A stretch of 64,000 bases of DNA from Candidatus Cloacimonadales bacterium (GCA_963662655.2 CAXXTU010000002.1:2048001-2112000); one strand, 5' to 3'. Positions 319-56,558 are shown, counted from the first letter of the stretch. The notes: a model not told the origin generated them from the letters alone. Translations and numbers: made by a program.

Positions 319-502
319 GCACGGCGGGGACGGCGCAGGAAGCCTCGTTGCCAAACACATACCCTCCTTCCGAATTTCATCCGATATACGGGCATGTGTT
401 TGGCTTTTGAAGAGGCTTCCTGATTCGCATCCCGGGAGGGCTCAATGAGCCCTCCCGGGATGCGAATCGTGCGCGGTAGCGCACGCGCCGTCCCCGCCGT
501 GC
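319..502. repeat. Four-way-junction structured element, family A, copy 1 (inverted relative to copies 2 and 3)
   Basis: Abutting stems 319-336/485-502 (18 bp perfect), 337-346/412-421 plus 350-360/394-404, 422-443/447-468 (22 bp perfect), 469-474/479-484. Confidence 0.85.
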
Positions 503-654
503 TGAGCATGTGCCATGCTCTTCTCTTCTCTCTCTGACCGACGACCGAAGCAGAATCGGGAAACTTTATTTGACAGACAGTTACGGACTGTGAAAAATGG
601 ATTTAACTTGCACAATGCAAGTTTGCAAAAATACATAATCAGGATTATAAAGCC

Positions 655-1896
655 ATGAAATACAGAAAATTAGGAATCCCCATCATCGTTGCAGCGCTTG
701 CGTTGACGATTGTCATCATGCTTGTAAAATGCTCCGCAGTGCCGGAAGAACAGGAAATCATCCAGCAGGAAAATACGTACATCCCCGAGCCGACCCATAT
801 CATGAAAGAGATTCAGAAGGGTGAAAGCATCTATCAGGTACTCACGGAGATGGGCGTAACCAACGACGCGGTCGCCGATTTCATTATATTCATGGGTGAA
901 TACGTTGATATCAGCACCATACAGCCCGGCGACTCCCTCAAGGTCAAGTTCGCCACGGATGGCGCAACAATCGAGGAGATCATCTACAAGCCCGACCTTA
1001 CCACGTCTCACATCATGTATAACTACGGCGATTCTCTCTCCTACGGCTACATTCAGGAGCCGGTGGAGGAAAAGCTCAGGATGATAACCGGTGAGGTAGA
1101 GAACACGCTCGATGCAGCCCTTTTGAGCGCCGGACTAGAAGCGGCCGTCAAGCAGGCGGTGAACAACACGCTGGAAGCCTCGATCAGCTTTCAGACAGAT
1201 ACCCGCAAGGGCGACGTATTCCACGTACTGCTTAAAGAACGCTATTTTCATGGCGAAAAACTGCCTCGGGCCAAGCTGGTCTACGCCTCCTACAAGGGCA
1301 AGGTTGCAGGATTCAAGGAGGCCTTCCGTTACAATGACGACGATGTCTCTTCCGCGCTGAACGGCATGTTCAGTCCCGAGGGAAAAGCGCTTGTTCACAA
1401 CGCCGTGCGCACCCCGCTCGATTACATGCACGTGACCTCGCCTTTCGGAAAAAGAATCCACCCGATCTCCCGCAAGTGGAAGATGCATCTGGGCATGGAC
1501 CTCAGGGCCAGAGTAGGAACCCCGGTCTATGCCGTTGCGGCGGGAAAAGTAACCAGCGCAGGGCCGAACGGCGGTAATGGCAAGGAAGTCCGGATCAAGC
1601 ACAACGACATGCTCACGCACTACGCCCATCTGAGCAAGGTATATGTCAGAAAGGGCCAGGTCGTCAAGAAGGGCACGAAGATCGGTCTTACGGGCAATAC
1701 CGGTTATTCGGCGGCTCCACACCTTCATTTCGGTTTGCAGAAGAACGGGAAGTGGATCAACCCGAAGAATCTCCGCATGGTCGGGGCGCAGAAGCTCAGC
1801 GGAGACAAGCTTGACCGTTTCAAGGGACAAATGGCGATTATTAAGCAGGATGTTTCCCGCCTCTCCCCTGCGGATGAGAATGTCTTCCCGCTGTAA
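655..1896 (+). CDS. M23 family metallopeptidase (MepM/OapA-like, membrane anchored)
   Basis: N-terminal TM helix; HLGMD (HxxxD), YAHLS and PHLHF (HxH) motifs. Confidence 0.92.
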   Translation: MKYRKLGIPIIVAALALTIVIMLVKCSAVPEEQEIIQQENTYIPEPTHIMKEIQKGESIYQVLTEMGVTNDAVADFIIFMGEYVDISTIQPGDSLKVKFATDGATIEEIIYKPDLTTSHIMYNYGDSLSYGYIQEPVEEKLRMITGEVENTLDAALLSAGLEAAVKQAVNNTLEASISFQTDTRKGDVFHVLLKERYFHGEKLPRAKLVYASYKGKVAGFKEAFRYNDDDVSSALNGMFSPEGKALVHNAVRTPLDYMHVTSPFGKRIHPISRKWKMHLGMDLRARVGTPVYAVAAGKVTSAGPNGGNGKEVRIKHNDMLTHYAHLSKVYVRKGQVVKKGTKIGLTGNTGYSAAPHLHFGLQKNGKWINPKNLRMVGAQKLSGDKLDRFKGQMAIIKQDVSRLSPADENVFPL

Positions 1897-2213
1897 TTAA
1901 TTCCAGAAATATAACATTTAGCCTTTTGTATCAAGAAAAAATTTAATGTGACGATATAACAGTTTCCACGAAAAAGAGATCGTGCTTGTATGCGATATCG
2001 CTCTGAAAAAAAGTCTATTTTTCAGTAACACCCTGAGCGTTTTTCTGTTATATTATTGCTGTATGATCGAATACAATTTCCGTTATGAGAGATTATAACT
2101 TGGGAAAATAGAGGGCGGAAATTGTTATTAGAGAGGATTTTCCGATTGAGATATCCAATGACTAAATGACATCTCATTCGGAAAACCGTACAATTACTTT
2201 CAAGGAGGTACTT

Positions 2214-2345
2214 ATGATTGTTTTGTCAGATTATTCAATAGCTCCTAAACCCAGTACAAACCCGAACCTCCCAAAAGAAAAAGGAAAAAAAGAGCCTGCA
2301 AAAAAAGATTCTGGAAACTCGAAAGAAAAAAACGAGAAGAAGTAA
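2214..2345 (+). CDS. Small Lys-rich protein, 43 aa (MIVLSDYSIAPKPSTNPNLPKEKGKKEPAKKDSGNSKEKNEKK)
   Basis: AAGGAGG RBS at 2202-2208, ATG 2214, TAA 2343-2345, followed by an intrinsic terminator; below the ORF-track length cut-off. Confidence 0.55.
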   Translation: MIVLSDYSIAPKPSTNPNLPKEKGKKEPAKKDSGNSKEKNEKK

Positions 2346-2368
2346 AAACTGCAGTTGCCATTTATATG

Positions 2369-2409
2369 AAAGGCGATCGATATCGGTCGCCTTTTTCTTT
2401 TGTTTTTTT
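2369..2409 (+). terminator. Intrinsic terminator
   Basis: AAAGGCGATCGA-TA-TCGGTCGCCTTT stem followed by a T-rich tail. Confidence 0.8.
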
Positions 2410-2530
2410 ATCTTGTCACATGCCGTTCGATCCCCTCTCTAATGGGATCGTCAATTATAAATCTCTGAAATCGTTTTCGTATATCGCCCTCAACCCTTGA
2501 CAATTTTCGGAATAAAAAATCAATGACCCT

Positions 2531-2629
2531 ATCGCCGAGCTCAGCCCACCTAAACGGTAATGATCCGCACGGTACTGAGCCGATAGGGTAACTCGGGAAA
2601 CCGGATTGCCTCCCTTTTGGAAAGGCGAG
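2531..2629 (+). promoter_or_regulatory. Moco/Tuco-class riboswitch aptamer (MOCO RNA motif, P3-less variant)
   Basis: P1 TCGCC/GGCGA; CCGAGC..ACCTAA..GGT..GCCGATAGGG; P2 GCTCAG/CTGAGC; GAAA-capped P4; 3' signature GCCTCCC-TTTT-GGAAAGG matching the moaA-leader consensus GCCTCCCGTATTTGGAAAGG as recalled. Confidence 0.8.
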
Positions 2630-2673
2630 AGCTTATCTCGTACTCCAAAGCAATTTTTTTTTTGGAGGAAATA

Positions 2674-4305
2674 ATGAATAACACTGTATTTCATCTTGAA
2701 GTACCCCAGAATGAACCGATTCTCTCGTACGCTCCCGGCACATCCGAGAGAAAGCTTCTGAAAACTGAACTCGAGCGCCAGGAATCCACGCAGATCGAAA
2801 TTCCTCTGATTATCGGAGGCAAAGAGGTTCGAACCGGCAACACCGACAACGTCGTCATGCCATGCGATCACAAACACGTTCTTGCGACCTACCACAAGGC
2901 CGGTGAGGCCGAGATCAAGCTGGCTATCGAGTCGGCCCTTAAAGCGAAGAAGGACTGGGAAAACCTCTCGTGGGTGGAAAGGGCCTCCATCCAGTTGAGG
3001 GCGGCAAACCTGCTCTCTACCAAATATCGCTGGCTGATCAATGCATCGACCATGCTCGGGCAGGGCAAGAACCCATTCCAGGCCGAAATCGATTCCGCAT
3101 GCGAAACCATCGATTTCCTGCGCTACAACGCCTACTTCGCATCCCAGATTTACTCGAACCAGCCCAAATCGGGCTTCGACCAGCTCAACCGTCTCGAGTA
3201 TCGCCCCTTGGAAGGATTCATCCTGACCGTTACGCCGTTCAACTTCACGGCAATCGCCTCAAACCTCAACATGTCCGTCGCGCTTATGGGAAACACAACG
3301 GTCTGGAAACCGGCGACGACCGCGCTCCTCTCCAACTACTATCTCATGAAGGTATACCAGGAAGCCGGAATGCCGGATGGCGTTATCAACTTCATACCGG
3401 GCAGCGGCGCGCTGATCGGAAACGTCTCTCTCTCCGATCCAAGCGTCTCGGGCGTCCACTTTACAGGCTCAAACAACACCTTCAACCACATCTGGAAAAC
3501 CGTTTCCAAAAACCTGAGTTCCCTGCATTCCTACCCTCGCCTCGTTGGCGAAACCGGCGGCAAGGACTTCATCTTCGTCCACAATTCGTCCGATCCGGCG
3601 CAAGTCGCAACCGCCATCGTGCGAGGATCTTTCGAGTACCAGGGACAGAAGTGCTCCGCTGCCTCCCGCGGATACATCCCCCGCTCGATGTGGAAGGAAG
3701 TTCGCGGTCTGCTTGAGTCCATGATCGGCGAGATCAAGATGGGCGACGTCCGTGACTTCAGCAACTTCGTCAACGCCGTCATAGACGAGAAAGCCTTCGA
3801 CAGCATCATGGGCTACATCGATAAAGCCAAGAATGCGGACGACGCGGAAGTCATCATCGGCGGAAACGGCGACAAGTCGGAAGGTTACTACATCGAGCCG
3901 ACCATCATCCTCACCGAAAATCCCAACTTCGTCACCATGGAAGAAGAAATCTTCGGCCCCGTCATGACCATCTACGTCTACGACGACGAGAAGTTCGAGG
4001 AAACGCTGGACATCTGCGACAAGACGTCCCCGTACGCTCTCACCGGCGCGGTTTTCTCCAACGATCGCTACGCCTTCGTGAAAGCATGTCAGAAACTCCG
4101 ATACGCCGCCGGCAACTTCTACATCAACGACAAGCCGACCGGCGCAATCGTAGGGCTCCAACCCTTCGGCGGATCTCGAGCCTCCGGTACAAACGACAAG
4201 GCCGGCGGACCGCTCAACCTCATGCGCTGGGTCAGCCCACGCACCATCAAGGAAACCTACAACCCGCCTACCCATTTCAGGTACCCATTCCTGGAATCGG
4301 AATAA
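2674..4305 (+). CDS. pruA: L-glutamate gamma-semialdehyde (1-pyrroline-5-carboxylate) dehydrogenase
   Basis: PQNEPILSYAPG start, PFNFTAI, FTGS, GETGGKDF, FEYQGQKCSAASR, QPFGGSRASGTNDKAG; GGAGG RBS before ATG 2674 (ORF-track start 2617 looks too long). Confidence 0.96.
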   Translation: MNNTVFHLEVPQNEPILSYAPGTSERKLLKTELERQESTQIEIPLIIGGKEVRTGNTDNVVMPCDHKHVLATYHKAGEAEIKLAIESALKAKKDWENLSWVERASIQLRAANLLSTKYRWLINASTMLGQGKNPFQAEIDSACETIDFLRYNAYFASQIYSNQPKSGFDQLNRLEYRPLEGFILTVTPFNFTAIASNLNMSVALMGNTTVWKPATTALLSNYYLMKVYQEAGMPDGVINFIPGSGALIGNVSLSDPSVSGVHFTGSNNTFNHIWKTVSKNLSSLHSYPRLVGETGGKDFIFVHNSSDPAQVATAIVRGSFEYQGQKCSAASRGYIPRSMWKEVRGLLESMIGEIKMGDVRDFSNFVNAVIDEKAFDSIMGYIDKAKNADDAEVIIGGNGDKSEGYYIEPTIILTENPNFVTMEEEIFGPVMTIYVYDDEKFEETLDICDKTSPYALTGAVFSNDRYAFVKACQKLRYAAGNFYINDKPTGAIVGLQPFGGSRASGTNDKAGGPLNLMRWVSPRTIKETYNPPTHFRYPFLESE

Positions 4306-4321
4306 ATCGCTTTCTCGCTCC

Positions 4322-4354
4322 AACGCCCGACATCAGTCGGGCGTTTCCTTTTTT
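4322..4354 (+). terminator. Intrinsic terminator after pruA
   Basis: AACGCCCGAC-ATCA-GTCGGGCGTT followed by TCCTTTTTT. Confidence 0.8.
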
Positions 4355-4371
4355 CGCGCAGCACTTCCAGT

Positions 4372-4494
4372 TCGCGAGCAGATTGGTTCGATCCTCTCTT
4401 CAACGTGGTGTTCCACAGCGTAGCTTTTTTTCAACACTCCTTTCGGAGCTGTGGTATATCCACGTTGAAGAGAGGATCGGGCGAAGATGCCGCG
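4372..4494 (-). repeat. Long stem-loop element, family B, short divergent copy
   Basis: Reverse complement reads CGCGGCATCTTCGCCCGATC...AACGTGGATATA...AACACCACGT...GATCGAACCAATCTGCTCGCG, matching both ends of the 41190 and 47680 repeats. Confidence 0.8.
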
Positions 4495-4531
4495 AACGTC
4501 CCACGCTTGCTTACATCCAGGATACAACGTG

Positions 4532-4564
4532 AAAAGAGCCGCAGAATAATGATTCCGGCGGCTC
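4532..4564 (-). terminator. Probable terminator of the CotH-domain gene
   Basis: AGAGCCGC/GCGGCTCT stem with an A-run on its left (U tail on the minus strand). Confidence 0.55.
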
Positions 4565-4591
4565 TCGGTGCATTGGGATTTCCTGACAATA

Positions 4592-6940
4592 CTACTTCAT
4601 GAGTAGCGCTTTCCTGATTTTTGTGCTTTCGTCTGTCTGAAGCTTGAAAAAATACACACCGCTCGAAACCGCTGATCCACTCTCGTTCGTACCATTCCAC
4701 GTCACCTGATGCGTTCCCGCAGGCATTACGGCATCGATCAGATTCACGACCCTCTGCCCTCTGATATTATAAACCGCGAGCTTCACATTACCCTGTTTTA
4801 TAGTGAATGAGACTGTCGTGGATGGATTGAACGGATTGGGGTAGATCATTATTTCAGTTGAAACAGGAACGATATCCTCTTCGTCTTCGCTCATGTTGCT
4901 GTTGGCTGCACCCGGAGTACCATAATTCATACTCGAAGCCTGCCAGCTTTCAGCGAGCGCGTTGTCGCTCTCGGGATCCATCAGTTCAAGAGTCGGGCCA
5001 TTGCCATCCGGCTCTGTCGGCCAGGGAGATTCGTCATCGTATTCGACAGAATCGATCAGATTTTCGTTCGTGTCGTACAATCGAAGAAGTTCGCCACCTC
5101 CGCTCAATCCGAAACCGACATCTCCCACATAATTGCTCACCCCGGGGAAATACTGCATGAACAGTTCTTCGCTCTCACACAATACGAGATATGCGTTCGC
5201 GTCAAGAATCGTGCCGTCGGGAATCTGGAATGCATGGCTGTCGTCCTCATCCTTGAATACCCAGCCCGAAAGGTTTACCGATTCAGAGCCGGGATTGTAT
5301 AACTCGATCCAGTCCTCGGTATCGTGGTCGTCCGGCGAATTGTAATTGATCTCGTTGATCACGACATCGCCTGTTTCGCCTTCCACATCGATCGTTTCGA
5401 ACTCGTACTGTGCTCTTGCCGGAAAAAAGGCCCCCTGATTCGCATTCTCAGCATAGATATAGTAGTCAATATCGCAATACCCGGCTGTTAAAAACGTTCC
5501 ATACACGCCGTCCCCGGATGCGCCGTCATCGTGTGCTCCATCATCGTACATTGCCACCTCGGTGAACGGGTCGGACGCGTTACCGCGGTACCCGAGAGAA
5601 ACGTTCAAGGCATCGTCCACCTCGACGGTAATCGTAATCTGCTCGTCGGGAGATGCGGAAGCCGGATCAGTTGCAACATTCGCGATCTCGGGTACCGTCC
5701 CCTGGAATGCTGATGAACCAAGAAGGTAATCGACGCGTACATCCATCAATTGCACAATCCCGACAATAGCTCCACCACCGCCGCCGCCGCCGCTATATAC
5801 AGTTGAATTTACATTCGCCTGGAAATTGGCAAACGAGTAGAAGAAATTGGGGTCGTTCTGCACATCGTTCTCAATCATGTCCTGAAGCTCGTTTGCCCGT
5901 GTTTCGTACCAGCCGTTCTCGAACACTTCTTCGATCATCGTTCTCATGTGGGCAATATATCTTCTTTTATATGTATTGTTGCTCAGGACATTGCCGATGA
6001 TCGGATAGTATGAGCTGTTGATATTATGCAGCGGGTCGAGGTGCTGCAATTCCGTGGTACTCTGCTCGTCGTAGGGCAGGAACCGCGTGAAACCGCCGAA
6101 CGCCATATTCATGTCCCACAGGATGGGATTGAAATGATCGGATGCATCCTGAAACAGGTAGTAGTTGTGACCGAAATTGATGGGACTGTCCAAATGCACC
6201 AGAAGATTGGAGAACGCGAGAAACCACAGATGGTTATCGATATTTAACACATCCTCAATATAGTCTGTGTCGTTGTTGAACACGTTGAGGAAGTTGATCA
6301 GCTCGTCCCAGCCGGTATCCGATTCCAACTCGTAATGATCGTAGTACGATGTTGAATCCGCGCCCTCGTATCCCCAGATCGGGAACATGCTGTTCGGGCC
6401 GTCGCTCACTTCCCCTTTGAAACGAGCTTTCTCACTTGTGTTGAAGTGGCTACTCATGAAATACTTGTCCACATCCTGACAACTCGTGTAGATACCGATC
6501 AGCTCGCCATTGACATAAACATTGGCGTAATTCGCCAGACCGGCCGGCATGTAGTTGCGAGCAATCTCGTAAGCGAGCGTCTCACGCACCAGCGAAGGAT
6601 CGTGAAAGCCGTTAGCCAGCTTGATCGTGCCGTAGTTGTCGATCAATTGATCGTCGATCACATAGTCGAGCTTGATGTTAAACGGGTTTTTTTCACGGTT
6701 TGGCGAGTAAGAGCTATTCCCCTTATATCGAACGCCAACGCTGTCGTATTGTACACCGTTGATCACGACTGTCCCCAGGAGGCGATCCTCACCGACTGCG
6801 TAAAGCTGGTCGAGAATCTGATCCCAGTTGTCTTGCTCGAATGTAAGCTCGATCTCGTTTATCTGCTCAATATCGTAAAAATCCTGCGCTGAAATCTGAA
6901 ACAGGGTTATCATCATTATTACTAGAAAAGTCCACTTCAT
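4592..6940 (-). CDS. Secreted CotH kinase family protein with lamin-tail domain and C-terminal sorting-like domain
   Basis: Signal peptide; VGVRYKGNSS, HNYYL and PILWDMNMAFG (CotH); MYDDGAHDDGASGDGVYG; VVINEINYN..DWIELYN (LTD); YPNPFNPST...RKALLMK. Confidence 0.9.
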   Translation of the reverse strand: MKWTFLVIMMITLFQISAQDFYDIEQINEIELTFEQDNWDQILDQLYAVGEDRLLGTVVINGVQYDSVGVRYKGNSSYSPNREKNPFNIKLDYVIDDQLIDNYGTIKLANGFHDPSLVRETLAYEIARNYMPAGLANYANVYVNGELIGIYTSCQDVDKYFMSSHFNTSEKARFKGEVSDGPNSMFPIWGYEGADSTSYYDHYELESDTGWDELINFLNVFNNDTDYIEDVLNIDNHLWFLAFSNLLVHLDSPINFGHNYYLFQDASDHFNPILWDMNMAFGGFTRFLPYDEQSTTELQHLDPLHNINSSYYPIIGNVLSNNTYKRRYIAHMRTMIEEVFENGWYETRANELQDMIENDVQNDPNFFYSFANFQANVNSTVYSGGGGGGGAIVGIVQLMDVRVDYLLGSSAFQGTVPEIANVATDPASASPDEQITITVEVDDALNVSLGYRGNASDPFTEVAMYDDGAHDDGASGDGVYGTFLTAGYCDIDYYIYAENANQGAFFPARAQYEFETIDVEGETGDVVINEINYNSPDDHDTEDWIELYNPGSESVNLSGWVFKDEDDSHAFQIPDGTILDANAYLVLCESEELFMQYFPGVSNYVGDVGFGLSGGGELLRLYDTNENLIDSVEYDDESPWPTEPDGNGPTLELMDPESDNALAESWQASSMNYGTPGAANSNMSEDEEDIVPVSTEIMIYPNPFNPSTTVSFTIKQGNVKLAVYNIRGQRVVNLIDAVMPAGTHQVTWNGTNESGSAVSSGVYFFKLQTDESTKIRKALLMK

Positions 6941-7089
6941 TTATCCTCCCGTGCATGGCCTCTTTATACCCAGCACGTTATTAGTGACATACCCTTACAG
7001 AAAATACTGCGATATATTTGCCAAAAACACACATTTTAAATTCGGTTCTGTATTGAATTGTCGGCGCAGGAGTGAAACACGGTCGGCTA

Positions 7090-7557
7090 TTAGCTAGCTG
7101 TATGGTTATTCCAGGTTCCGGGCTCATCGACGATAAAATCGGCACAAACCTTGTAGAAAGGCAATCGGGCTGTGTAGAGATCATGGATATCCTGCTCTGT
7201 TTTCCCCTGTAAAAGTGGCCTGTCGCTGTTTCTGATACGATTCCAGAGTAAATCCCAAGGAACATCGAGGAAGATCGTCGTGTGCTCCGGTCGCATCAGA
7301 AAGTCACGGTTCGTTTCCGATTCGACGATTCCCCCACCGGTCGCGCAGATCCCATCACCGGTCATGGTTTCAAGGAGTTCCGATTCGATCTCGCGGAAAA
7401 ACTTTTCGCCGCGCTCCCGGAAAATCACGGGGATCGTCATGCCGGTCTTTTCCTCGATCAGTCTGTCCAGATCATAGAACGGGCAGCCATGTTTCTCGGA
7501 GAGGCGCTTTCCTGCGGTGCTTTTCCCACAACCCATGAAGCCAATCAGAAATACCAC
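7090..7557 (-). CDS. aroK: Shikimate kinase
   Basis: FLIGFMGCGKST, DLD, GEKFFREIE, ATGGG, RPLL. Confidence 0.93.
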   Translation of the reverse strand: MVFLIGFMGCGKSTAGKRLSEKHGCPFYDLDRLIEEKTGMTIPVIFRERGEKFFREIESELLETMTGDGICATGGGIVESETNRDFLMRPEHTTIFLDVPWDLLWNRIRNSDRPLLQGKTEQDIHDLYTARLPFYKVCADFIVDEPGTWNNHTAS

Positions 7558-7568
7558 ATCATCCTCAC

Positions 7569-7599
7569 AAAAAAAGGGCGGTCTGAAACAACCGCCCTC
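7569..7599 (-). terminator. Terminator-like hairpin between rpsA and aroK
   Basis: AGGGCGGT/ACCGCCCT stem with A-run on its left. Confidence 0.65.
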
Positions 7600-7613
7600 T
7601 ATATTCCAACAGA

Positions 7614-28921: not shown

Positions 28922-29022
28922 CGCCATACAGCAATCGTGCAAAAGACTTTGATATCTGTCTTGTTATAGAAAAAGGCTCTATTGCAAATCTGGTGGGTTA
29001 TTGTATCTCAGCCCTTCCTTAA

Positions 29023-29129
29023 TGTCATCCTGAGCGGAGTCGAAGGATGGATTCAGCATTGAATGATCCTTCGACTCCGCTCAGGATGACAGAGACTGTG
29101 GCAAGCCTTCGATTCCGCTCAGGATGACA
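29023..29129. repeat. REP-like palindromic units (three copies)
   Basis: TGTCATCCTGAGCGGAGTCGAAGGAT (29023-29048), its perfect inverse (29066-29091) and a third inverse copy (29106-29129), between convergent genes. Confidence 0.85.
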
Positions 29130-37627: not shown

Positions 37628-37693
37628 AAATAAAAAAATACTTGACAACCTACTCGATGTAGATCAAATTATCTATGTTGATGCGGAGGAAAA

Positions 37694-37900
37694 ATGGCTA
37701 AAGGTAGATCTTTCTCAGCAAAATTGGCACATGAAATCTCAACCGAAGGTAAAGTGATTTGCCCGGTTTGCAACACTGAAGTGAAACAAGTGAAACTGAT
37801 TCGGGCTAGAAAATCCAAAAGCGAAAGCTGGGCCCCACGGTATGAGTTCATTAAAATGTGCAAATGCAACGAAAATGATGTTATGAGCGGTAAAGTTTAG
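37694..37900 (+). CDS. Small basic CxxC/CxC protein, possible zinc-binding bL38/DUF4295-like ribosomal protein
   Basis: GGAGG RBS; MAKGRSF..., CPVC and CKC, Lys-rich; follows efp. Confidence 0.7.
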   Translation: MAKGRSFSAKLAHEISTEGKVICPVCNTEVKQVKLIRARKSKSESWAPRYEFIKMCKCNENDVMSGKV

Positions 37901-37935
37901 AGTTCTCACACCCTACATAAAATGCCCTCCTAGCG

Positions 37936-37969
37936 AATACCCTCTAATCGCCCGATTAGAGGGTATTTC
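37936..37969 (+). terminator. Hairpin / possible terminator
   Basis: AATACCCTCTAATCG-CC-CGATTAGAGGGTATT perfect stem, short U tail. Confidence 0.55.
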
Positions 37970-38054
37970 CATTTTAGAAATCCTCTTCTCTTTGCAGTCT
38001 CTCTTACAAATTCTCCATACAGCACCAGAAAACCCGGCATCGCACAACCATACA

Positions 38055-38234
38055 GCGCGCAGACGGCGTGTGTGCATAGCACACGAGAATGCATCCCTAC
38101 TCATCCCCAATAAATGAGCAGGGATGCATTCTCAGAAAGCCCCCAAAAAGCCCCGACAACATGCTTCATCCACCAGTTGTTACCGGTTTGATTCATGTTG
38201 TCGGGGCGTATGGGCTTCCACGCCGTCCGCGCGC
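38055..38234. repeat. Four-way-junction structured element, family A, copy 2
   Basis: Stems 38055-38069/38220-38234, GTGTGC-ATA-GCACAC, 38085-38104/38114-38133, AAGCCC..GCCCCGACAACATG/CATGTTGTCGGGGC..GGGCTT. Confidence 0.85.
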
Positions 38235-38251
38235 GGCAAGCAGGTCGAAAC

Positions 38252-41062: not shown

Positions 41063-41189
41063 GAAATGCGCTCATTAATGGGAGGGTGGGCGCATGGAAT
41101 TGGAAATGGATTTGCCGACTTCGCAAATCCAGTTTCAAATCCATGCGGGACCGCTTCTCTCCAAGCGCATTTCGTCAATAATCGCACGA

Positions 41190-41371
41190 CGTGGCATCTT
41201 CGCCCGATCGTGCCGCTCCAACGTGGATATAATGCACCTTTGATCTCCACTAACATGATTTCGAGGAACGAAATCACAACGCTCAGGTTTTCGTTTTAAC
41301 TACGTCAAAGCCGAAAATAGGTGCATAACACCACGTCTCCGCGGCAGATCGAACGAATCTACTCACGTCTC
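41190..41371 (+). repeat. 182-bp structured repeat, family B, left flank of the flagellar module
   Basis: Aligns without gaps to 47680-47861 with ~9 mismatches (manual count). Confidence 0.92.
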
Positions 41372-41377
41372 ATTCTG

Positions 41378-44776: not shown

Positions 44777-44810
44777 AGCTTTACATCCTACTCGTCTGAT
44801 GAGAAGTCGA

Positions 44811-45311: not shown

Positions 45312-45324
45312 CTTGACTCCTTAT

Positions 45325-46176: not shown

Positions 46177-46185
46177 TGTTATCTC

Positions 46186-47501: not shown

Positions 47502-47518
47502 TGCATGAGCTATGCCAA
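47502..47518 (-). promoter_or_regulatory. Sigma54-type promoter of the flagellar operon
   Basis: Minus strand TTGGCATAGCTCATGCA, GG-N10-GC spacing, ~230 bp before flgI. Confidence 0.55.
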
Positions 47519-47679
47519 ACGATTCCACAAGCTCGTTACTTATTGTATAGAAGTTGTTTACGCTAACATTGCAGAAGTATTTCACAATGGGAAATGAGTG
47601 GTTTTTTATTCCATAGTGGAAAGATTTTCCTGTACTATTTTACCGGGCATCAGCGAGGAAACGGCAACTTGCTTTCCGT

Positions 47680-47861
47680 CGTGGCATCTTCGCCCGATCG
47701 TGCCGCACCAACGTGGATATAATGCACCCTCGATCTCCACTAACATGATTTCGAGGAACGAAATCATAACGTTCAGGTTTTCGTTTTGACTACGTCAAAG
47801 CCGAAAATAGGTGCATAACACCACGTCTCCGTGGCAGATCGAACGAATCTGCTCACGACTC
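47680..47861 (+). repeat. 182-bp structured repeat, family B, right flank of the flagellar module
   Basis: Direct repeat of 41190-41371. Confidence 0.92.
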
Positions 47862-47913
47862 GCGGTGAAGCGGGATCATCAAGAATGATTCAAAGGTGGG
47901 AAATGTGTAAGAA

Positions 47914-49944: not shown

Positions 49945-50017
49945 TTATCGTCATGCTCCATTCTTTATTTACATTAAGATACGCTTTTCTCGCTCGAAGT
50001 CAAGCATAACTTGCGAT

Positions 50018-50464
50018 TCACTGATTTCGTTTCGCGTCCATCCGCTTCTGCAGAACCTTTTTGAAATCGATCTTCTCCTGAAGCTTATAGCCGCAATCCT
50101 CGTCGAGCCTCCCGCCATGCCGGAACATCCAGATGTTGGGAAACTCACGGCAGATGTCCGGGCGTTCCTCGTATCGAGTGCAACGCCCGTCATCGCCAAC
50201 AAGTTTACAGGAAAAAATCAAAATACCTGCCTCATCCCTGCCGATAATCTCCATATTGCGGTAGAAAGGGCTCCTCTTCTGAAGCTTGCGGAAATATCGC
50301 CTGGACCGTACAACGCCATGCGTCTCGATCAGCATCAGGCTGCGGCAGCAATCTCCGCATTGCTTGCATTCGCCAATGACCTCGAGCTTCTCCGGCGAGA
50401 ACCGATAGAGCCACTCACGCTTCAAGCGCAGCAACAGAAACCGGGCAAAATCGGTTACACGCAT
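50018..50464 (-). CDS. YkgJ-family cysteine-cluster protein
   Basis: CKQCGDCC, CKLV..GRCTRYEERPDICREFP. Confidence 0.88.
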   Translation of the reverse strand: MRVTDFARFLLLRLKREWLYRFSPEKLEVIGECKQCGDCCRSLMLIETHGVVRSRRYFRKLQKRSPFYRNMEIIGRDEAGILIFSCKLVGDDGRCTRYEERPDICREFPNIWMFRHGGRLDEDCGYKLQEKIDFKKVLQKRMDAKRNQ

Positions 50465-50467
50465 CGC

Positions 50468-52984
50468 TTATCGCAGGAGAACGATCTTCTTCACCAGCGA
50501 ACGCTCGCTGCTCTCGATCCGCGCGAAATAGATACCGCTACCAACTCTCTTGCCCGACTGGTCGGTTCCGTTCCACTGAATCATGTATCTGCCACCGGCG
50601 TCTTTCTCCGGTTTCCACGACTGGATTTTCTGCCCCTTCACGTTGTAGAGGCTAACGGTGGGTACTTTCGAGGATGCGATGCTCATCGAGATTCCGCTTC
50701 CGCTTGCAAGGTTGGTCGGATTCGGGAATATGTGCGCCGCAAGGAATTTCTCCGGCGTGGGATCAGGCTCGTCGCCGATGCTCTGGATGTTTATCTCCAG
50801 GGTGTTGGTCGAATAGGATTCACCTTGTTCTGTAATTGCTGCAATATAGTATTCATTATTGCCCGACGGCACTTCTACGTATGTCCAAAAACCTGTAAAG
50901 TCAAGCATCTCTTCAACATCGCCGTTTCGGTAGAGCCAATATCCCGTGAAAGGATCCGCCGAATCAAGGAACGGTGGGTCCCACATGAATAGGTAAAGAT
51001 TGTCATGCTGATGCCACGCAGTGAGATTCATGGGGCCTTCGTGATCCATGTCCCGGACGAAGCCCCAATAATTTCCTTCACAAAGCGGCATATAGCCTTC
51101 GCCGCCATTCAAGTAGCAGCCCTCGGCCTGGTAATCGTTTTCGAGACACCAGGATAAATACTCCTTCTCGTTCATGAGGCCGAAATCCTCTACGAATCGC
51201 CGCCGGTACAAAATTTCTTGGTTGTATTCGTAGTAATCGACAATTAACTCACCTGTTTCTCCATACGGTGTAACCAGGGCATTCAGGTAGTTGACCGTTA
51301 AATCGTCGCCCAAATCTGCAGAAACCCATGTATCTCCTGGTTCCAGATCATCGTTGCGAACCAACCAGCAAGTTTGTGCGATCCACAGGGTCTCGGGGAA
51401 GGTCGGTTCATAATCTACGAGACCGACAATCTGAACGCCTTCATCAGCATCGACCAGTAAATAGTCTTTCTCCCAGAAGATGAGGTGGGAGTATCGGTAC
51501 GGATAGATTTCCATGCCGTCGTGCGTGAATGGGGCATAGATTGTTCGGGAGATTGGTAACTCCTCAACAAACTCCCTGATGTCGATACCGGTGGTGATGG
51601 TTTCCTCTTCGATATGAAGAACGTCCGGATCGCTAATACCGTCGTATATACTCTTCAACGGGTTGTCCTCGACGTCCTCTTCAACGTACACGAAGTAGTT
51701 GCCGGCAAAGGGAACCGGTAGGAAATAGGTGCTATCGGAGGTTGAATGCCCGGTCGCGACGATGTCTCGGGTTTCCTCTTCCACGAGATAAACGTTAACT
51801 TCCGGATTCACCAGGTTGCTGACCTTCCCGGTAATAAAGGCTCTGGCCAGACAATCCGTCGTATAGATCGGATCGTAATCCACGGAACCGGTGATGGTTT
51901 CTTCGATCTCCGCCGGAATGACGGTACCCCAGAAGCAGTTTTCCGCCTTGATTTCGTGCGATGAACCGGAATAGATACTGTGGGTGGTCCCCGATCCGTC
52001 GATATTATCGTAGATTATATTGCGGCCTGTGCCGAGTGTGGTATTACCCAAATCCCCGTTCGCGTTGTTTATAATGTAGAATCCCGTATAGTTTCCGGTG
52101 ATGATGTTCTGGCTGAAGGTTGGATATGTCGTCGCGCCGTAGAGCATCACTCCCGCGCCGGAATTGGCGTTTCCAGGTACGAAATTGTTGCGGATTATGT
52201 TATTCTCGAAGTAACCGGAGGCATCGTAGAGATAGATGCCCGTCAGGTTTTCCTCGATCAGGTTCCCTCTGACGGTTGGGGAAATATCGCCGCTTGCGTA
52301 GATATCCCAGGCCGTTATCCCCTGCCAGACGTTGTTGTGGATGTGGTTGTCATAAATCTGCGGGTGGCAGATACCGCCATCGCTCTGGCAGGCCATCTGA
52401 ATGGCTGCTCTGGGCGATTCGTCCAGCGCGCACTGCGTGATCTCGTTATTCGTGATGATCGGATTGTGTTCGTAGATCATGATGCCGTTTTGCTGGCAAT
52501 TCTCGATCAGGTTTTCGTTGATGATCACCTCGGGCGGATTGGAGTTCCCCAGCCCGTAGACATGGATTCCCGTAACGTTGTTGTCGAAGTGGCAGTTGGT
52601 AATTTCCAGCTGCGTATTGAGGGTGTTGATTCCATTATCCGCGTGTTCGATATAGCAAAAGCTGAAGAAACTTCCCTGGCTGCTATTATCCAGCCGAATA
52701 CCGCCCCAAACACTTTCGTCCGGTGAATAAAAGTGAATAAGACTGGTCGCGGTTCCCTCTGCCGTGATGGCTCCTTCGACGTTGATGCGATAATCGCCCA
52801 TCGCTTCAACGTTCACACCGGGGTGGATCGTCAATGTGTTCCCGGCCGAAACCGTTATGTCGCCAACAACCTGGTAGGGATTGTTATCCATAGTCCATGT
52901 ACCGCTCTGATTTCCTGAGACGTCGGTACCGCTCAATATGCTGACGCATAGGAACACTGAAATCAATATCAAAGCCTTTTTCAT
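50468..52984 (-). CDS. Secreted beta-helix protein with C-terminal sorting-like domain
   Basis: Signal peptide MKKALILI, DVSGNQSGTWT..NPY, LTIHPGV, Asn-rich repeats, FPNPTN...SGIYFAR..KKIVLLR. Confidence 0.85.
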   Translation of the reverse strand: MKKALILISVFLCVSILSGTDVSGNQSGTWTMDNNPYQVVGDITVSAGNTLTIHPGVNVEAMGDYRINVEGAITAEGTATSLIHFYSPDESVWGGIRLDNSSQGSFFSFCYIEHADNGINTLNTQLEITNCHFDNNVTGIHVYGLGNSNPPEVIINENLIENCQQNGIMIYEHNPIITNNEITQCALDESPRAAIQMACQSDGGICHPQIYDNHIHNNVWQGITAWDIYASGDISPTVRGNLIEENLTGIYLYDASGYFENNIIRNNFVPGNANSGAGVMLYGATTYPTFSQNIITGNYTGFYIINNANGDLGNTTLGTGRNIIYDNIDGSGTTHSIYSGSSHEIKAENCFWGTVIPAEIEETITGSVDYDPIYTTDCLARAFITGKVSNLVNPEVNVYLVEEETRDIVATGHSTSDSTYFLPVPFAGNYFVYVEEDVEDNPLKSIYDGISDPDVLHIEEETITTGIDIREFVEELPISRTIYAPFTHDGMEIYPYRYSHLIFWEKDYLLVDADEGVQIVGLVDYEPTFPETLWIAQTCWLVRNDDLEPGDTWVSADLGDDLTVNYLNALVTPYGETGELIVDYYEYNQEILYRRRFVEDFGLMNEKEYLSWCLENDYQAEGCYLNGGEGYMPLCEGNYWGFVRDMDHEGPMNLTAWHQHDNLYLFMWDPPFLDSADPFTGYWLYRNGDVEEMLDFTGFWTYVEVPSGNNEYYIAAITEQGESYSTNTLEINIQSIGDEPDPTPEKFLAAHIFPNPTNLASGSGISMSIASSKVPTVSLYNVKGQKIQSWKPEKDAGGRYMIQWNGTDQSGKRVGSGIYFARIESSERSLVKKIVLLR

Positions 52985-53028
52985 GTTACCTTCAATATGA
53001 GTATGTTGCATCTATGTCAGTTTCTATG

Positions 53029-53745
53029 TTATTCCTTTATTTTCTCTTCGAATAAGTACTCGATTTTCGAAAGGTTGTCTCGAATGAACGATTGCGCGAT
53101 GAACTCGGCGAAGATATCGAGGATGATCAGCGCGTTGATGTGGGTGTCCTTCGCTCGTTGAGACTTTATACGTTTCATCAACGTTGTATTGACCTGATGG
53201 ATCTGGTCGAGATCGGTTGTCAACTCCTGAAGGTCCCAATCGGGCTTCTGCCCCTTTTTCTTGCGGAAGAACTGGCGAACGAGGTACATGGAAATCCAGC
53301 GGTACATGGTCTCTTCCAGCGATGCGAACGGGAGATGGAATCGAACCATCGGGCGCAACGTCGAAAGTACCGGGCAGCCGCAGGTGACAGTGAATATACC
53401 CATTATCGAACTAACACCCTTTTGGAGATCGATCAGTTGCAGGTAGGTTCTTTCCTTCGCTTCCACCCGAACTTCCGCTTTCTCGAAGGATACCAGATTC
53501 TTGAAATAATCGATGATATCCACCAAGCTCGCCGCCACCGGGCAATAGAGATGTTCCTCTTTCGTAAGTGTGCAATTGGGACACTTGTGGAACTCGAGCT
53601 TTGTCCAATCCGGTAGGTCCACGTAAGGCTCTCTTACGAGCTCAAGCGTATCCGGCTTGAGGAAGATATCGATATTCTGCATTTCTCCGTTTTTAAATAT
53701 GAACGTATATGTGAATTTAATTAGCTGCGGGGACATTGCTTGCAT
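53029..53745 (-). CDS. Conserved hypothetical protein (DUF6901-like, Cys motifs)
   Basis: PDWTKLEFHKCPNC, CPVA, GCP..LRPMVRFHLPFA. Confidence 0.75.
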   Translation of the reverse strand: MQAMSPQLIKFTYTFIFKNGEMQNIDIFLKPDTLELVREPYVDLPDWTKLEFHKCPNCTLTKEEHLYCPVAASLVDIIDYFKNLVSFEKAEVRVEAKERTYLQLIDLQKGVSSIMGIFTVTCGCPVLSTLRPMVRFHLPFASLEETMYRWISMYLVRQFFRKKKGQKPDWDLQELTTDLDQIHQVNTTLMKRIKSQRAKDTHINALIILDIFAEFIAQSFIRDNLSKIEYLFEEKIKE

Positions 53746-53891
53746 TTCATTACCTCAGTGTCATAGAACGCAATTAAATTATCAGTGTGTCAAGAAAGAA
53801 TTGCAATGCGTCTTTGCATCGCTCCTGAACGTTCGTGTTCGGAACTGAACGGCACAAACCAGAATTATCACATTTAAACCGAACTTGACAG

Positions 53892-53908
53892 ATGGCATGC
53901 GACTTGCA
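53892..53908 (+). promoter_or_regulatory. Sigma54 -24/-12 promoter of the second permease
   Basis: ATGGCATGCGACTTGCA, GG-N10-GC spacing with TTGC. Confidence 0.7.
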
Positions 53909-53984
53909 TAAATGATATAGGATGATTTTTGCTGAGAAGAGATGTCGGCGACAATCATTTGACTCAATTTTTACCGGAGGTCGG

Positions 53985-56351
53985 ATGTTTCGTAACTACC
54001 TGGTGATCGCTGTCAGGAACATTGTACGCTACAAGCTGCATTCGCTGATCAATATCATGGGATTGGCGATTAGCTTCGCCGTTTCGATCCTGATCGCGTT
54101 TTGGGTCATGCACGAGTACTCGTACGACAAATTCCACGAGCATATCGACAACATTTACCTCGTGCCGAGTTATGTTTACTATGGGCCTCAGAAGAATTTC
54201 AACACCGGCAGTCCCCCTGCTCTCGCCCATGCTATCGAAACGGAATATCCGGAGGTGATTCGGGCAGGACGTCTTTACAACAGCGATACGAACGTCCTGA
54301 TCCAGGTCGGGCAGGATTCCTTCAAAGAGAAGCTGAACTTCCTTGATCCAGCACTCTTCGATATATTCACGTTTCCATTTGTCAGCGGAGATTTCAAGGC
54401 CGGCGAGATAGATCCCTATTCCCTGGTTGTTTCGGAGACCATCGCGAAGAAATTGTTCGGAGACGTGAATCCGGTCGGGAAAACGGTGGATATCGACGAG
54501 AGGTTCACGTTTACCATTACGGGCGTCTTCCAAGATATCCCCGGGAACTCAACCATCACATTCTCGATGGCCGCGCCCATTATCTTCCTCGAGAATTATT
54601 ATGACAGAGAAGGATACACGCAAACGTGGTATAATTGCAGTTTCCGGTCATACGCCCTGCTGAAGGACAATTTCGATGTAGTGCCGTTTCTGGAGAAGCT
54701 TTCCGGGCGCTGCAAGGAATCGCGACCCGAGAGCGATATCGAGCCATTCCTCTATCCCTATAAAGACCTGTATCTCGTGTTGTACGGTTATTCACGATAC
54801 ACCATGATATTCATCAACATCTGCCTGTTCATTATCTTGATCGCGATGATCAATTTCGCCAACCTCTCGACGGCTTCCGCTTTGCGGAGATCGCGGGAGA
54901 TCGGAATTCGCAAGATATACGGCAGCAGCAGAAAAAGGCTCATGTTTCAATTCATTGGAGAATCGATTCTACTGGCGTTTTTATCTCTCTTCATCAGCAT
55001 TTTCCTGGTCGAGTTCACGCTACCGCTGTTTAACAACCTGACAAACGAGACCTTCTCTTTCAGGAATTTCTTCACTTTCAAACTGGGGTTGATCGGCTTC
55101 GGAATCACCCTCCTCACCGGGCTTCTGGCGGGAATCTATCCTGCTTTCTTGCTTTCGAGATTCAATCCGATTGATGTGCTGAAGAACCCGGATTTCCGTG
55201 TTGGAGGGAAATCGGTGCTGCGCATCATTCTGGTGATTACCCAGTTCATGCTCAGCTCCATTATGTTTATATCCCTCATGTTTGTCATGCAGCAAACCCG
55301 ATACATGATACATAAAAACTTGGGCTTCGATAAGGAAAACCTCGTTGTGATCCCGGTCGAGGGCAATTTGATCGAGCACGCCGAGACCTGGAAGCACGAT
55401 CTGGTGTCGCATCCGGACATCGCTTCAGGAACTCTCTCGTCTCACCTGCCTACCGGTATCTGGTACAACAGCTCCGGCTGGGATTGGGAGGGGCGTCCTG
55501 AAGACCTCGTTTTTCTCGTTACATTCCTTAACATCGATTACGATTACCTCAAGACGATGGACATCGACATGAAGTTGGGTAGCTTCTTCTCGCCTGAGAA
55601 AAACCCGCAAAATTCGTCGAATGTGGTTATAAACGAAGCTTTCGCAGAGAAAATTGGCGTGGAGAATCCGACGGGAATGACGCTTCACTATTCCGGCATC
55701 GACGTGACGGTGATCGGCGTTGTGAACAATTTTAATTACAAGACCCTCGAGTACGAGCTCGGGCCGCTATTGATGCAGTGCACCAACAATGAAGACTTGT
55801 TCGGTTCCATTAAATACAACTACCTCACTTTACGGGTGATAGATAGCGATATTCCCAAGACCATCGAGTACATCGAGAAAGTGACGCGGAAGTTCAATCC
55901 GAGCTACCCCTTCACCTACTTTTTCCTGGACGATCTCCTGCAGAGCCGATACAGAACAAGTCAGAGATTTATGCAGATGGTGGGAAGCTTCACGGTCTTG
56001 GCGCTCTTTATCTCCAGTCTGGGACTGTTCGGACTCGCTTCGTACATGACTCGGCAGCGCACAAGGGAGATCAGTATCAAAAAAGTTCTGGGGGCATCCA
56101 TCACACGCATCAGTCTTACCATGATTTTCGATTTCTGCAAATGGGTTCTTCTGGCGAATATTCTTGCGTGGCCCATCGCATGGTATCTGGTCCGCAAATT
56201 CCTGGAGGCTTATCCGTACAGGATTGATATCGGGCTCCATCCCTTTATGCTTTCGACCCTTATCACCTTCTTCATTGCGGCACTCACCGTAAGTTGGCAA
56301 ACCATCCGCGTCGCCTTTATGACGACAACAAAATCCTTGCAAAACGAATAG
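53985..56351 (+). CDS. ABC transporter permease, duplicated MacB/FtsX type
   Basis: MFRNYLVIAVRN, INIMGLA, INFANLSTA..RSREIGIRK, RTREISIKKVLGAS; GGAGG RBS before ATG 53985. Confidence 0.93.
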   Translation: MFRNYLVIAVRNIVRYKLHSLINIMGLAISFAVSILIAFWVMHEYSYDKFHEHIDNIYLVPSYVYYGPQKNFNTGSPPALAHAIETEYPEVIRAGRLYNSDTNVLIQVGQDSFKEKLNFLDPALFDIFTFPFVSGDFKAGEIDPYSLVVSETIAKKLFGDVNPVGKTVDIDERFTFTITGVFQDIPGNSTITFSMAAPIIFLENYYDREGYTQTWYNCSFRSYALLKDNFDVVPFLEKLSGRCKESRPESDIEPFLYPYKDLYLVLYGYSRYTMIFINICLFIILIAMINFANLSTASALRRSREIGIRKIYGSSRKRLMFQFIGESILLAFLSLFISIFLVEFTLPLFNNLTNETFSFRNFFTFKLGLIGFGITLLTGLLAGIYPAFLLSRFNPIDVLKNPDFRVGGKSVLRIILVITQFMLSSIMFISLMFVMQQTRYMIHKNLGFDKENLVVIPVEGNLIEHAETWKHDLVSHPDIASGTLSSHLPTGIWYNSSGWDWEGRPEDLVFLVTFLNIDYDYLKTMDIDMKLGSFFSPEKNPQNSSNVVINEAFAEKIGVENPTGMTLHYSGIDVTVIGVVNNFNYKTLEYELGPLLMQCTNNEDLFGSIKYNYLTLRVIDSDIPKTIEYIEKVTRKFNPSYPFTYFFLDDLLQSRYRTSQRFMQMVGSFTVLALFISSLGLFGLASYMTRQRTREISIKKVLGASITRISLTMIFDFCKWVLLANILAWPIAWYLVRKFLEAYPYRIDIGLHPFMLSTLITFFIAALTVSWQTIRVAFMTTTKSLQNE

Positions 56352-56376
56352 GACACTCGAGATCGGCACCCAACCA

Positions 56377-56558
56377 GCGCGGCGGGGCGGCGGGTGTGCT
56401 TCGCACACGATCCACTCCTCTTGCATGCGACCCCGCTTGCAAGAGGAGTGGATTAAAAGCCATTTCTCAGCGCTGCGACATGACTCGCCGACCGGATGCA
56501 ATTCGGGATGGACTGGCATGTCGCAGAGCGAAAGGGCTTTTCCGCCGCCCCGCCGCGC
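56377..56558. repeat. Four-way-junction structured element, family A, copy 3
   Basis: Stems 56377-56393/56542-56558 (17 bp perfect), GTGTGC-TTC-GCACAC, 56409-56429/56434-56454, AAAAGCC..CTGCGACATG/CATGTCGCAG..GGCTTTT. Confidence 0.85.

Follow-up and report, generated by a model that had tools for sequence, protein, structure and literature searches.

REP and REPIN elements are GC-rich extragenic palindromes that occur in tens to hundreds of copies, in lineage-specific numbers and without target duplication, the REP unit being a single 20-40-bp hairpin and the REPIN a symmetric pair of such hairpins. Integron attC sites, which stand in tandem cassette arrays and carry R and L boxes, are recombination sites read as a folded single strand, in which shape matters more than sequence and the terminal structure is variable. 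Classical MITEs originate from DDE-type insertion sequences or are mobilised by them, and target duplications accompany them. An excerpt of PMC3184786 describes the MITEs Correia/NEMIS, ERIC, RUP and BOX as non-coding intergenic elements of 100-200 bp with inverted termini and a stable fold if transcribed. The same excerpt presents bcr1, a group A Bacillus cereus repeat, as an interspersed non-coding sequence of ~155 bp whose positions are not conserved between relatives and which has the properties of a non-autonomous mobile element; compensatory base-pair changes keep its cruciform-like fold. Direct repeats of 5 bp flank bcr1, its stem-loops are two independent ones, and it is found in the B. 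cereus group only (PMC3184786).

Here, we analysed a 64,000-nt stretch of DNA (the window) from a Candidatus Cloacimonadales bacterium, whose genome we refer to as G000. An initial annotation had noticed three elements sharing one four-way-junction fold in this window, and unconstrained folding returned the same fold for all of them (Table 1), with minimum free energies of -154.9 (z -18.4), -110.6 (z -14.8) and -133.6 kcal/mol (z -12.6) for copies 1, 2 and 3, respectively; 0 of 200 shuffled sequences folded as well. The components listed at that time, namely CA, a GC-rich closing stem, a GTG(C/T)GC-loop-GC(G/A)CAC hairpin, a 20-22-bp hairpin starting with GA, an AAGCC...GGCTT arm, the closing strand and GG, are all seen in the three stretches, and the apex CGGATG(A/C)AATTCGG can be read in both copies 1 and 3. 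A covariance model, R1, trained on other copies of G000, matched exactly three loci of the window, 317-504 (-), 38050-38239 (+) and 56374-56561 (+), at 78.5, 66.7 and 81.5 bits; a fourth match, at 49.7 bits, was copy 3 on its opposite strand (-). Copy 2, which has the most divergent P1, was missed by a 5'-end nhmmer profile.

Table 1. Positions of the three elements and their parts within the 64,000-nt window.
Feature	Position	Strand	Basis
Copy 1, long form	319-502	-	window sequence, MFE four-way junction, covariance model R1
Copy 1, P1 5' strand	485-502	-	
Copy 1, P2	469-484	-	
Copy 1, P3	422-468	-	
Copy 1, P4	337-421	-	
Copy 1, P1 3' strand	319-336	-	
Copy 2, long form	38055-38234	+	window sequence, MFE four-way junction, model R1
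Copy 2, P1 5' strand	38055-38069	+	
Copy 2, P2	38070-38084	+	
Copy 2, P3	38085-38133	+	
Copy 2, P4	38135-38219	+	
Copy 2, P1 3' strand	38220-38234	+	
Copy 3, long form	56377-56558	+	window sequence, MFE four-way junction, model R1
Copy 3, P1 5' strand	56377-56393	+	
Copy 3, P2	56394-56408	+	
Copy 3, P3	56409-56454	+	
Copy 3, P4	56455-56541	+	
Copy 3, P1 3' strand	56542-56558	+	
Copy 3, 5' flank module: ACTCGAGATCGGCA, then outer imperfect part of the closing stem	56345-56376	+	flank-motif scan

The flanking gene strands agree with the earlier description of one copy between divergent and two between convergent genes: copy 1 is flanked by a gene without known identity (-) and a Peptidase_M23 gene (+), copy 2 by efp (+) and a gene without known identity (-), and copy 3 by a MacB/FtsX permease gene (+) and a DUF6754 gene (-). 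We also concur that a riboswitch role is improbable. Scanning the window against Rfam at the gathering threshold yielded only a Moco riboswitch at 2521-2643 and no element, none of the 14 matches at E<=10 overlapped an element, and ten loci from Clostridia likewise gave no match at gathering (the best was ar35, whose 28.7 bits fall short of the cut-off of 45), so the elements match no Rfam family, in line with the initial annotation. A generic full-text word search, covering journals outside subscription, found no published description of this family.

The count of three copies proved far too low, because the family comprises ~70 copies in G000, all of them GC-rich, 110-207 nt long, intergenic, single and dispersed. 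A descriptor search of this genome returned 82 candidates, and filtering retained 68; these 68 parsed copies are the basis of all fold, loop and flank counts given below. The R1 search, in which 150 of 1011 candidates were scored, produced 81 matches at E<=0.01, corresponding to 72 loci once nine opposite-strand duplicates were removed. Contig C1 was considered as a plasmid carrier and rejected, since it holds glyS, valS, mnmG, pfk and pta and is thus chromosomal.

All 68 copies are built alike, with a closing stem P1, a P2 hairpin of 15-17 nt, a hypervariable, near-perfect P3 hairpin and a P4 arm that is either short or long, and in each of them three branches stand inside P1, whether RNA or DNA folding parameters are used. 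P1 provides terminal inverted repeats, in which a conserved 12-bp core is extended by mostly 5-9 further pairs between the ends, and in about half of the copies the junction is perfect, with no unpaired base. Sequence conservation resides in P1 and P2, with conserved letters in the stems rather than in loops or junction, and the mean pairwise identity is 0.76 in the P1 core versus 0.30-0.32 in P3.

In behaviour, the family resembles bcr1 in that it is interspersed, its positions are not conserved and compensatory changes keep a branched fold. However, it is GC-rich, lacks flanking repeats and encloses exactly three hairpins in its closing stem in 68/68 copies, and its hosts, a Cloacimonadales genus and gut Clostridia, belong to two phyla. 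With REP/REPIN it shares the GC-rich, extragenic and multicopy character, the lineage-specific number and the lack of target duplication, but the hairpins within the closing stem are three different ones in every parsed copy, the element is asymmetric, with P2 on one side only (as reflected in the unequal R1 scores of the two strands of copy 3, 81.5 versus 49.7 bits), and no Y1/RAYT gene is found in four copy-rich genomes. Like MITEs, the elements are non-coding and intergenic, with inverted termini (P1) and a stable fold; unlike them, they have neither a duplication nor a parent insertion sequence with matching ends, and one hypervariable arm lies beside conserved termini. The resemblance to attC would lie in a folded single strand in which shape outweighs sequence and part of the structure varies, whereas the elements studied here are single and dispersed and conserve a GC-rich stem together with one hairpin.

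Pairing is strongly maintained across the family. Both sides have changed in 29 of the 42 model pairs (229 cells), and the covariation score of 0.373 exceeds that of all 500 shuffles (0.115; 0/500 reach the observed value) and the 0.07-0.14 obtained with slid partners. In ten pairs of copies with 80-90% identity, compensated double changes are seen at 18 of the 508 aligned base pairs, compared to ~1.3 expected. The initial proposal of structural selection is thereby borne out as far as the upkeep of pairing is concerned, although this upkeep may be mutational, by arm-to-arm copying, instead of selective. The tight lengths of P3 (mostly 40-52 nt) and of the long P4 (79-95 nt) in the parsed copies suggest selection on shape.

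Several features of the family have a direction. The P2 loop is pyrimidine-rich in 59 copies versus 9, and between co-directional genes the sense orientation outnumbers the antisense one (27 versus 11, p=0.014, with crude ORF calls). The motif ACTCGARNTTGCTC lies 26-30 nt 5' of the 12-nt P1 core in 19/68 copies, as opposed to 1.9% of control intergenic windows (copy 3 scores 10.9 for it), and recurs as a direct repeat on the 3' side in only 3/68. A purely double-stranded element would have no need of the strand polarity seen in the P2 loops, the sense bias and the 5'-only flank motif. Replication-strand bias is absent (32 versus 33), and a T-run upstream or an A-run downstream accompanies 26/68 copies versus 21% of control intergenic midpoints, a modest excess. 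The outer flanks pair with their own partners no better than with mismatched ones. A separate repeated 'target' family in these flanks was considered and rejected, as nhmmer flank profiles gave 4 and 0 hits; the sole hit counted as non-adjacent adjoins an element copy outside the list of 68.

Polarity of this kind could be expected of a multicopy structured ncRNA or an mRNA-borne module, the transcribed junction acting as RNA, for example as an RNase III-sensitive or stabilising structure at operon ends, or through protein binding to P1-P2. The very stable folds, the strong covariation and the tightly constrained arm lengths accord with such a function, as do the sense excess, the loop polarity, the flank motif at its fixed distance and the P3 stems of ~17-24 bp, a length that falls within the size range of RNase III substrates. 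The strand tests, however, lend the ncRNA branch of the initial annotation no support. Mismatches of the G:T and A:C types number 124 and 98 genome-wide (p=0.09), or 70 and 59 under stricter counting, so that the lack of strand preference noticed in the window holds for the whole genome, and G:U does not exceed A:C on either strand, also once copies are grouped according to the orientation of the adjacent genes. Furthermore, the conserved letters avoid loops and junction, consensus scans found no promoter or terminator framing the three window copies, copies also lie between divergent genes and antisense to their neighbours, congeners make do with one copy versus ~70 in G000, and Rfam holds no match. 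Weighed against the strong folds and covariation, these observations leave an RNA function unlikely.

The confinement of sequence conservation to double-stranded parts, the strand symmetry of the mismatch types, the perfect junction in about half of the copies and the intergenic position of every copy would also suit a DNA structural site recruited by the host, to be bound or extruded at operon boundaries by nucleoid, gyrase-type or junction-binding proteins. Such a role has been proposed for REP/BIME elements. Nevertheless, one copy suffices in sister species, the phyletic distribution is patchy, and the unit stands in unrelated flanks in another species; selfish spread therefore fits better than a housekeeping role, and we regard host recruitment as improbable.

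The distribution of the family speaks for mobility. The congeners G001, G002 and G003 carry one locus each, two other genomes of the same taxonomic family have none, and matches were found in 3/121 genomes of the order-level search and in 2/151 of the phylum sample. The G002 copy is 91% identical to the G000 copy at C1:115433-115548 over the 120-nt unit only, with no similarity in the 1.5 kb on either side. G001 and G003 have their copy at an orthologous position where G000 lacks one, and no clean empty site could be recovered among the congeners because their intergenic DNA is too diverged. Synteny breaks at all five elements for which both flanks can be placed in congeners, as it also does at ~16 of the ~21 block junctions in the window, as read from the block table, and the elements are therefore not marked out as rearrangement breakpoints.

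Beyond this genus, three gut Clostridia MAGs show the same P1-P2 sequence and helix order as G000, with 33, 20 and 4 matches, and no match was found in 150 further genomes from the order to which G121 belongs. A P1-P2 pattern scan of genome contigs gave at least 100 matches, and the 80 listed loci are mostly chance hits in GC-rich genomes; 16 of these listed loci match R1 at E<=0.01, and among them the four-way fold occurs only in the Cloacimonadales record, one Clostridia MAG (7 loci) and Ca. Pelethousia. Those weaker R1 matches among the listed loci that were folded form no four-way junction. The pattern hit viral contigs three times, never convincingly (all <=18.5 bits with R1), and a blastn search of plasmids with one element as query was negative. 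Single copies in sister species, combined with recurrence in unrelated gut Clostridia, imply that these elements are likely small non-coding mobile DNA. Of the three possibilities raised in the initial annotation, namely a multicopy ncRNA, a non-autonomous mobile element and an ssDNA or Holliday-junction-like substrate, the mobile-element branch is the one upheld by the ~70 copies versus one per congener, by the 91% identical unit in unrelated flanks and by the patchy spread across phyla.

Neither a target duplication nor a linked enzyme emerged from the searches. The longest direct repeats in the flanks show the same distribution as those between mismatched partners, and the junctions of the unit that G000 and G002 have in common bear no direct repeats. 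The search yielded no autonomous copy; of three copies that seemed to lack the closing strand, two are truncated and gene-free, and the third is complete, closing with mismatches 163 nt further on. Y1_Tnp (PF01797) had no matches in the copy-rich genomes G000, G121, G122 and G125, whereas control genomes responded and the single-element genome G001 gave three matches. The DEDD/IS110 domain (PF01548) is absent from G000, G121 and G122, and the TnpB zinc-ribbon domain (PF07282) from all five genomes searched. G000 has a single RVT_1 match, at a distance of ~10 kb from the nearest copy, and the three Clostridia MAGs have none. The multi-copy genes of G000 are ISL3 (11 copies) and IS3-type (8 copies), both with ends unrelated to the elements; 2/11 ISL3 copies lie within ~125 nt of an element, and the two types are otherwise unlinked to the family. 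Beside 28 Clostridia copies no recombinase recurs, only ABC ATPases.

These searches bear on yet another possibility, that a mobile system working by RNA guidance or reverse transcription uses the element as its accessory RNA, in the manner of a bridge RNA, an omega/reRNA or a retron msr-msd, with the hypervariable arm providing specificity. Retron ncRNAs and guide scaffolds have a layout of a closing stem with small conserved and long variable hairpins, which the present elements resemble in their length of 110-207 nt, their closing stem formed by the ends, and their one small conserved and one long variable hairpin. Yet none of the genomes searched for DEDD/IS110, Y1_Tnp or the TnpB zinc ribbon that carry many copies has the respective domain, the single RVT_1 of G000 is distant, and the variable arm is paired with itself, making this the least probable reading, with a very slight chance of being correct. 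P3 as a guide or captured sequence was likewise discarded, weak matches at other sites of the genome being found for 5/61 arms versus 2 for shuffled arms.

On balance, we favour, by a modest degree of confidence, the explanation that this ~70-copy GC-rich intergenic family is a non-autonomous, structure-defined mobile DNA element and not an RNA gene. P1 and P2 would constitute the putative recognition site of a trans-acting enzyme, the mover presumably being other than Y1/HUH, IS110, TnpB or a shared reverse transcriptase, and insertion would proceed without target duplication. Template switching has been proposed to create and maintain hairpins, as stated in an excerpt of 10.1101/2021.04.15.439925. 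In the present elements, such DNA-level arm-to-arm copying (template switching at quasi-palindromes) is probably the main process that keeps the arms near-perfectly palindromic; it would let arm sequences drift while pairing persists, and selection on shape may add to it. A bolder version, which we consider doubtful, is a cross-phylum 'cloverleaf' transposon in which nothing is fixed except the GC-rich closing stem and a single small hairpin; its mover, an enzyme belonging to none of the HUH, IS110, TnpB, DDE-with-duplication and reverse transcriptase classes, would recognise or cut the folded junction, and the other arms would be free to mutate as long as they remain hairpins.

If the preferred explanation of a structure-defined mobile element is true, the family would be a clean natural case of repeats that inherit shape and not sequence, with ~70 paralogues that have one fold and arms unrelated in sequence. 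The compensated changes are ~14-fold above chance at only 9% divergence, and the family would therefore be well suited to telling selection on RNA structure apart from homogenisation of palindromes at the DNA level, a distinction that matters when covariation is taken to indicate functional RNA. On this explanation, such families give strong false signals in structured-RNA screens and are worth cataloguing. Their occurrence in two distant phyla without the usual transposases of small elements would, if true, point to a mobilising activity of another kind.

The four-way-junction feature is real. For the three copies in the window, the sequence features claimed in the initial annotation were borne out on reading the three stretches, as was the gene context given for them, and unconstrained folding recovered the proposed fold: a closing stem (P1) around three hairpins (the small P2, the hypervariable P3 and P4, a short or long arm), leaving no more than one base unpaired at the junction. 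The folding energy is −154.9 kcal/mol (z = −18.4) for copy 1, −110.6 kcal/mol (z = −14.8) for copy 2 and −133.6 kcal/mol (z = −12.6) for copy 3, and none of 200 shuffles folded as well. Scans of the window around these copies with promoter and terminator consensus sequences found none framing the elements. Rfam returned no match to them at gathering scores or at E ≤ 10 and does not list the family; a Moco riboswitch is the one genuine hit to an RNA family anywhere in the window.

The three copies are genuine members of one family; what did not stand was their number, as the family is far larger than the copies first seen. In the source genome (3.81 Mb, 51% G+C), whose contig C2 contains the window at 2048001–2112000, a profile of the element's 5′ end marked 63 places, and a descriptor search for a 6-bp P2 hairpin after 12 nt whose complement recurs 40–260 nt downstream yielded 82 candidates, 68 of them with a G-rich P1. 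A covariance model built from 33 short copies gave 81 matches (150 of 1011 candidates scored), corresponding to 72 loci once nine opposite-strand duplicates are removed. Exactly three branches lie inside P1 in all 68 parsed copies, with RNA and DNA parameters alike.

Element architecture and locations of features (C1 and C2, contigs of the source genome)
Feature	Location	Strand	Description
P1			Conserved 12-bp core plus mostly 5–9 further pairs
P2			15–17 nt (68 parsed copies)
P3			37–52 nt in 61 parsed copies, 18–20 nt in 7
P4, short form			16–32 nt (33 short copies, each 100–117 nt)
P4, long form			64–95 nt; 79–95 nt in all long copies but two
Copy 1	window 319–502	−	Four-way junction
Copy 2	window 38055–38234	+	Four-way junction
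Copy 3	window 56377–56558	+	Four-way junction
Element related to the G002 copy	C1:115433–115548		Four-way junction
RVT_1 (reverse transcriptase) match	C2:981409–981954		One in-frame TGA in a 370-aa open frame
ISL3 copies near an element	C2:2159353–2160588; C2:2629410–2630645		Distances to a four-way junction about 124 and 38 nt; no element within 1.5 kb of the remaining nine of eleven copies
Moco (molybdenum/tungsten cofactor) riboswitch	window 2521–2643	+	Scores 66.4 bits (gathering score 36)
Second interspersed family	window 4373–4500; 41187–41372; 47657–47871		Long near-perfect hairpins of 125–200 nt with ends in common; 3 to 8 further copies in the source genome
Third repeat	window 28970–29111; C2:2656697; C2:448155; C2:2832627		Hairpin with a perfect stem of ~26 bp; source of weak miRNA-type Rfam matches at window 29022–29092
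Repeat of ~120 nt	window 2071–2190		Folds only weakly; also present in G001 (three copies) and G002 (one copy) at 80–84% identity
Block downstream of efp	window 37628–37976		83–86% identity in all three congeners, ending at ~37976; largest ORFs 55–68 aa; no Rfam match; possibly a small gene, or else an RNA absent from Rfam
Gene order in the genus	window 1–60000; C2:2580001–2596000		Broken at most operon boundaries among four species; coding DNA 66–88% identical despite this

Mean pairwise identity is 0.76 in the P1 core and 0.30–0.32 in P3, the latter being near that of unrelated sequence, and P2 preserves its shape across the stem variants GTGCGC/GCGCAC (n = 41), GTGTGC/GCACAC (n = 13) and GTTTGC/GCAAAC (n = 8). 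Two-sided changes affect 29 of the 42 pairs (229 cells) in an alignment of the 33 short copies, and the covariation that the initial annotation had proposed to look for is present, with a score of 0.373 against 0.115 for shuffled data (0 of 500 reaching the observed value) and 0.07–0.14 for slid partners. Across 508 aligned base pairs from ten copy pairs that are 80–90% identical, there are 18 compensated double changes against about 1.3 expected, alongside 38 changes on one side only, with pairing retained in 14. Six long copies whose P3 arms are unrelated have the P4 apex CGGATGRAATTCGG in common, so either P3 has a faster turnover than the rest of the element or copies exchange it. Members of a subfamily have the base of an arm in common and differ at its tip; P3 begins GACTCC in five copies, and the orthologous copies of two congeneric species, G001 and G003, agree in their arm bases and differ in the sequence and length of their tips.

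Under selection, a structured RNA should accept G:U much more readily than A:C. The claim that such mismatches favour neither strand holds genome-wide, with transition mismatches being nearly strand-symmetric (G:T 124 versus A:C 98, p = 0.09; 70 versus 59 by a stricter count) and their balance unshifted between copies sense and antisense to their neighbours. The copies are also free of replication-strand bias (32 versus 33), and several tests are in this way without an RNA-type strand signature. The elements do show a polarity: copies between co-directional genes are more often sense than antisense (27 versus 11, p = 0.014, with crude longest-ORF gene calls), 59 of 68 copies have a P2 loop rich in pyrimidines, and the motif ACTCGARNTTGCTC precedes the P1 core by 26–30 nt in 19 of 68, as against 1.9% of controls, and occurs on the 3′ side in only 3 of 68. 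The nine exceptional P2 loops include exact reverse complements of common ones (GAA, GGA and GTA versus TTC, TCC and TAC).

The source genome has 42 occurrences of the exact P1–P2 pattern and three congeners have a single one apiece, while 37 further relatives have none. With 150 candidates scored per genome, the covariance model found one locus each in the congeners G001, G002 and G003 and none in two other genomes of the family; run with stricter filters and 23–29 candidates scored per genome, under which the weak G003 copy was missed, it matched 3 of 121 genomes across the order and 2 of 151 in a phylum sample. The G001 and G003 copies are orthologous in position, with queD/engB on one side and a membrane-protein gene on the other; the source genome has no element at this site. 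The G002 copy and an element on contig C1 of the source genome are 91% identical over the 120-nt unit alone, which takes in P3 and P4, and have nothing in common in 1.5 kb on either side. Because the identity ends with this unit, what moves appears to be the four-way junction as such, running roughly from CAGCGCGG to CCGCGCGG. Flanking direct repeats were found neither at this shared unit nor across the family generally.

Three gut Clostridia MAGs were among the matches listed in a P1–P2 pattern scan of genome contigs, and the covariance model matched them 33, 20 and 4 times. Their copies follow the helix order of the source genome with nearly the same P1–P2 letters (GGGGGCGGCGG, GTGCGC-NNN-GCGCAC), a P3 with the base CAAAG/CTTTG and a variable, compensated interior, and a P4 with the base GTTTGGC. 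For one of these MAGs, 150 further genomes sampled from its order gave no match to the model. Many copies in a handful of scattered lineages are typical of a selfish element that spreads by transfer.

As to candidate movers, none of the four copy-rich genomes has Y1_Tnp; DEDD/IS110 is absent from the source genome and two others of these (G121 and G122), and the TnpB zinc-ribbon domain from all five genomes tested, while RVT_1 occurs once, in the source genome only; no recurrent recombinase stands beside 28 Clostridia copies. ISL3 (11) and IS3-type (8) elements, the multi-copy genes of the source genome, were considered as parents and rejected, their ends being unrelated to the element. A gene-bearing, autonomous copy was likewise sought among the three first parsed without a closing strand, two of which are truncated and geneless and one complete. 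Accounts of the family as REP/REPIN–RAYT, as a DDE-derived MITE or as an RT-, IS110- or TnpB-linked RNA all fail on the defining tests.

A non-autonomous, structure-defined mobile DNA repeat fits these observations best. The conserved P1–P2 would serve as the recognition site of an enzyme, and the arms may be kept as near-perfect palindromes by DNA-level arm-to-arm copying at quasi-palindromes, a process put forward as a source of hairpins and a means of maintaining them (10.1101/2021.04.15.439925; PMC5941160). Consistent with such copying are arms that pair almost perfectly, mismatches balanced between the strands, loops that occur inverted, turnover concentrated at the tips and a high proportion of changes already compensated at low divergence. 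In behaviour, the known kind that comes closest is the B. cereus group repeat bcr1, described as a mobile-like interspersed repeat of ~155 bp in which compensatory changes keep a cruciform-like fold, but which differs in having 5-bp direct repeats and two stem-loops (PMC3184786). Most likely, the family belongs with the structured repeats or MITEs as a variant of them. Its narrow range of arm lengths, together with its signs of polarity, would still allow the folded strand to have a function, whether as RNA or as ssDNA.
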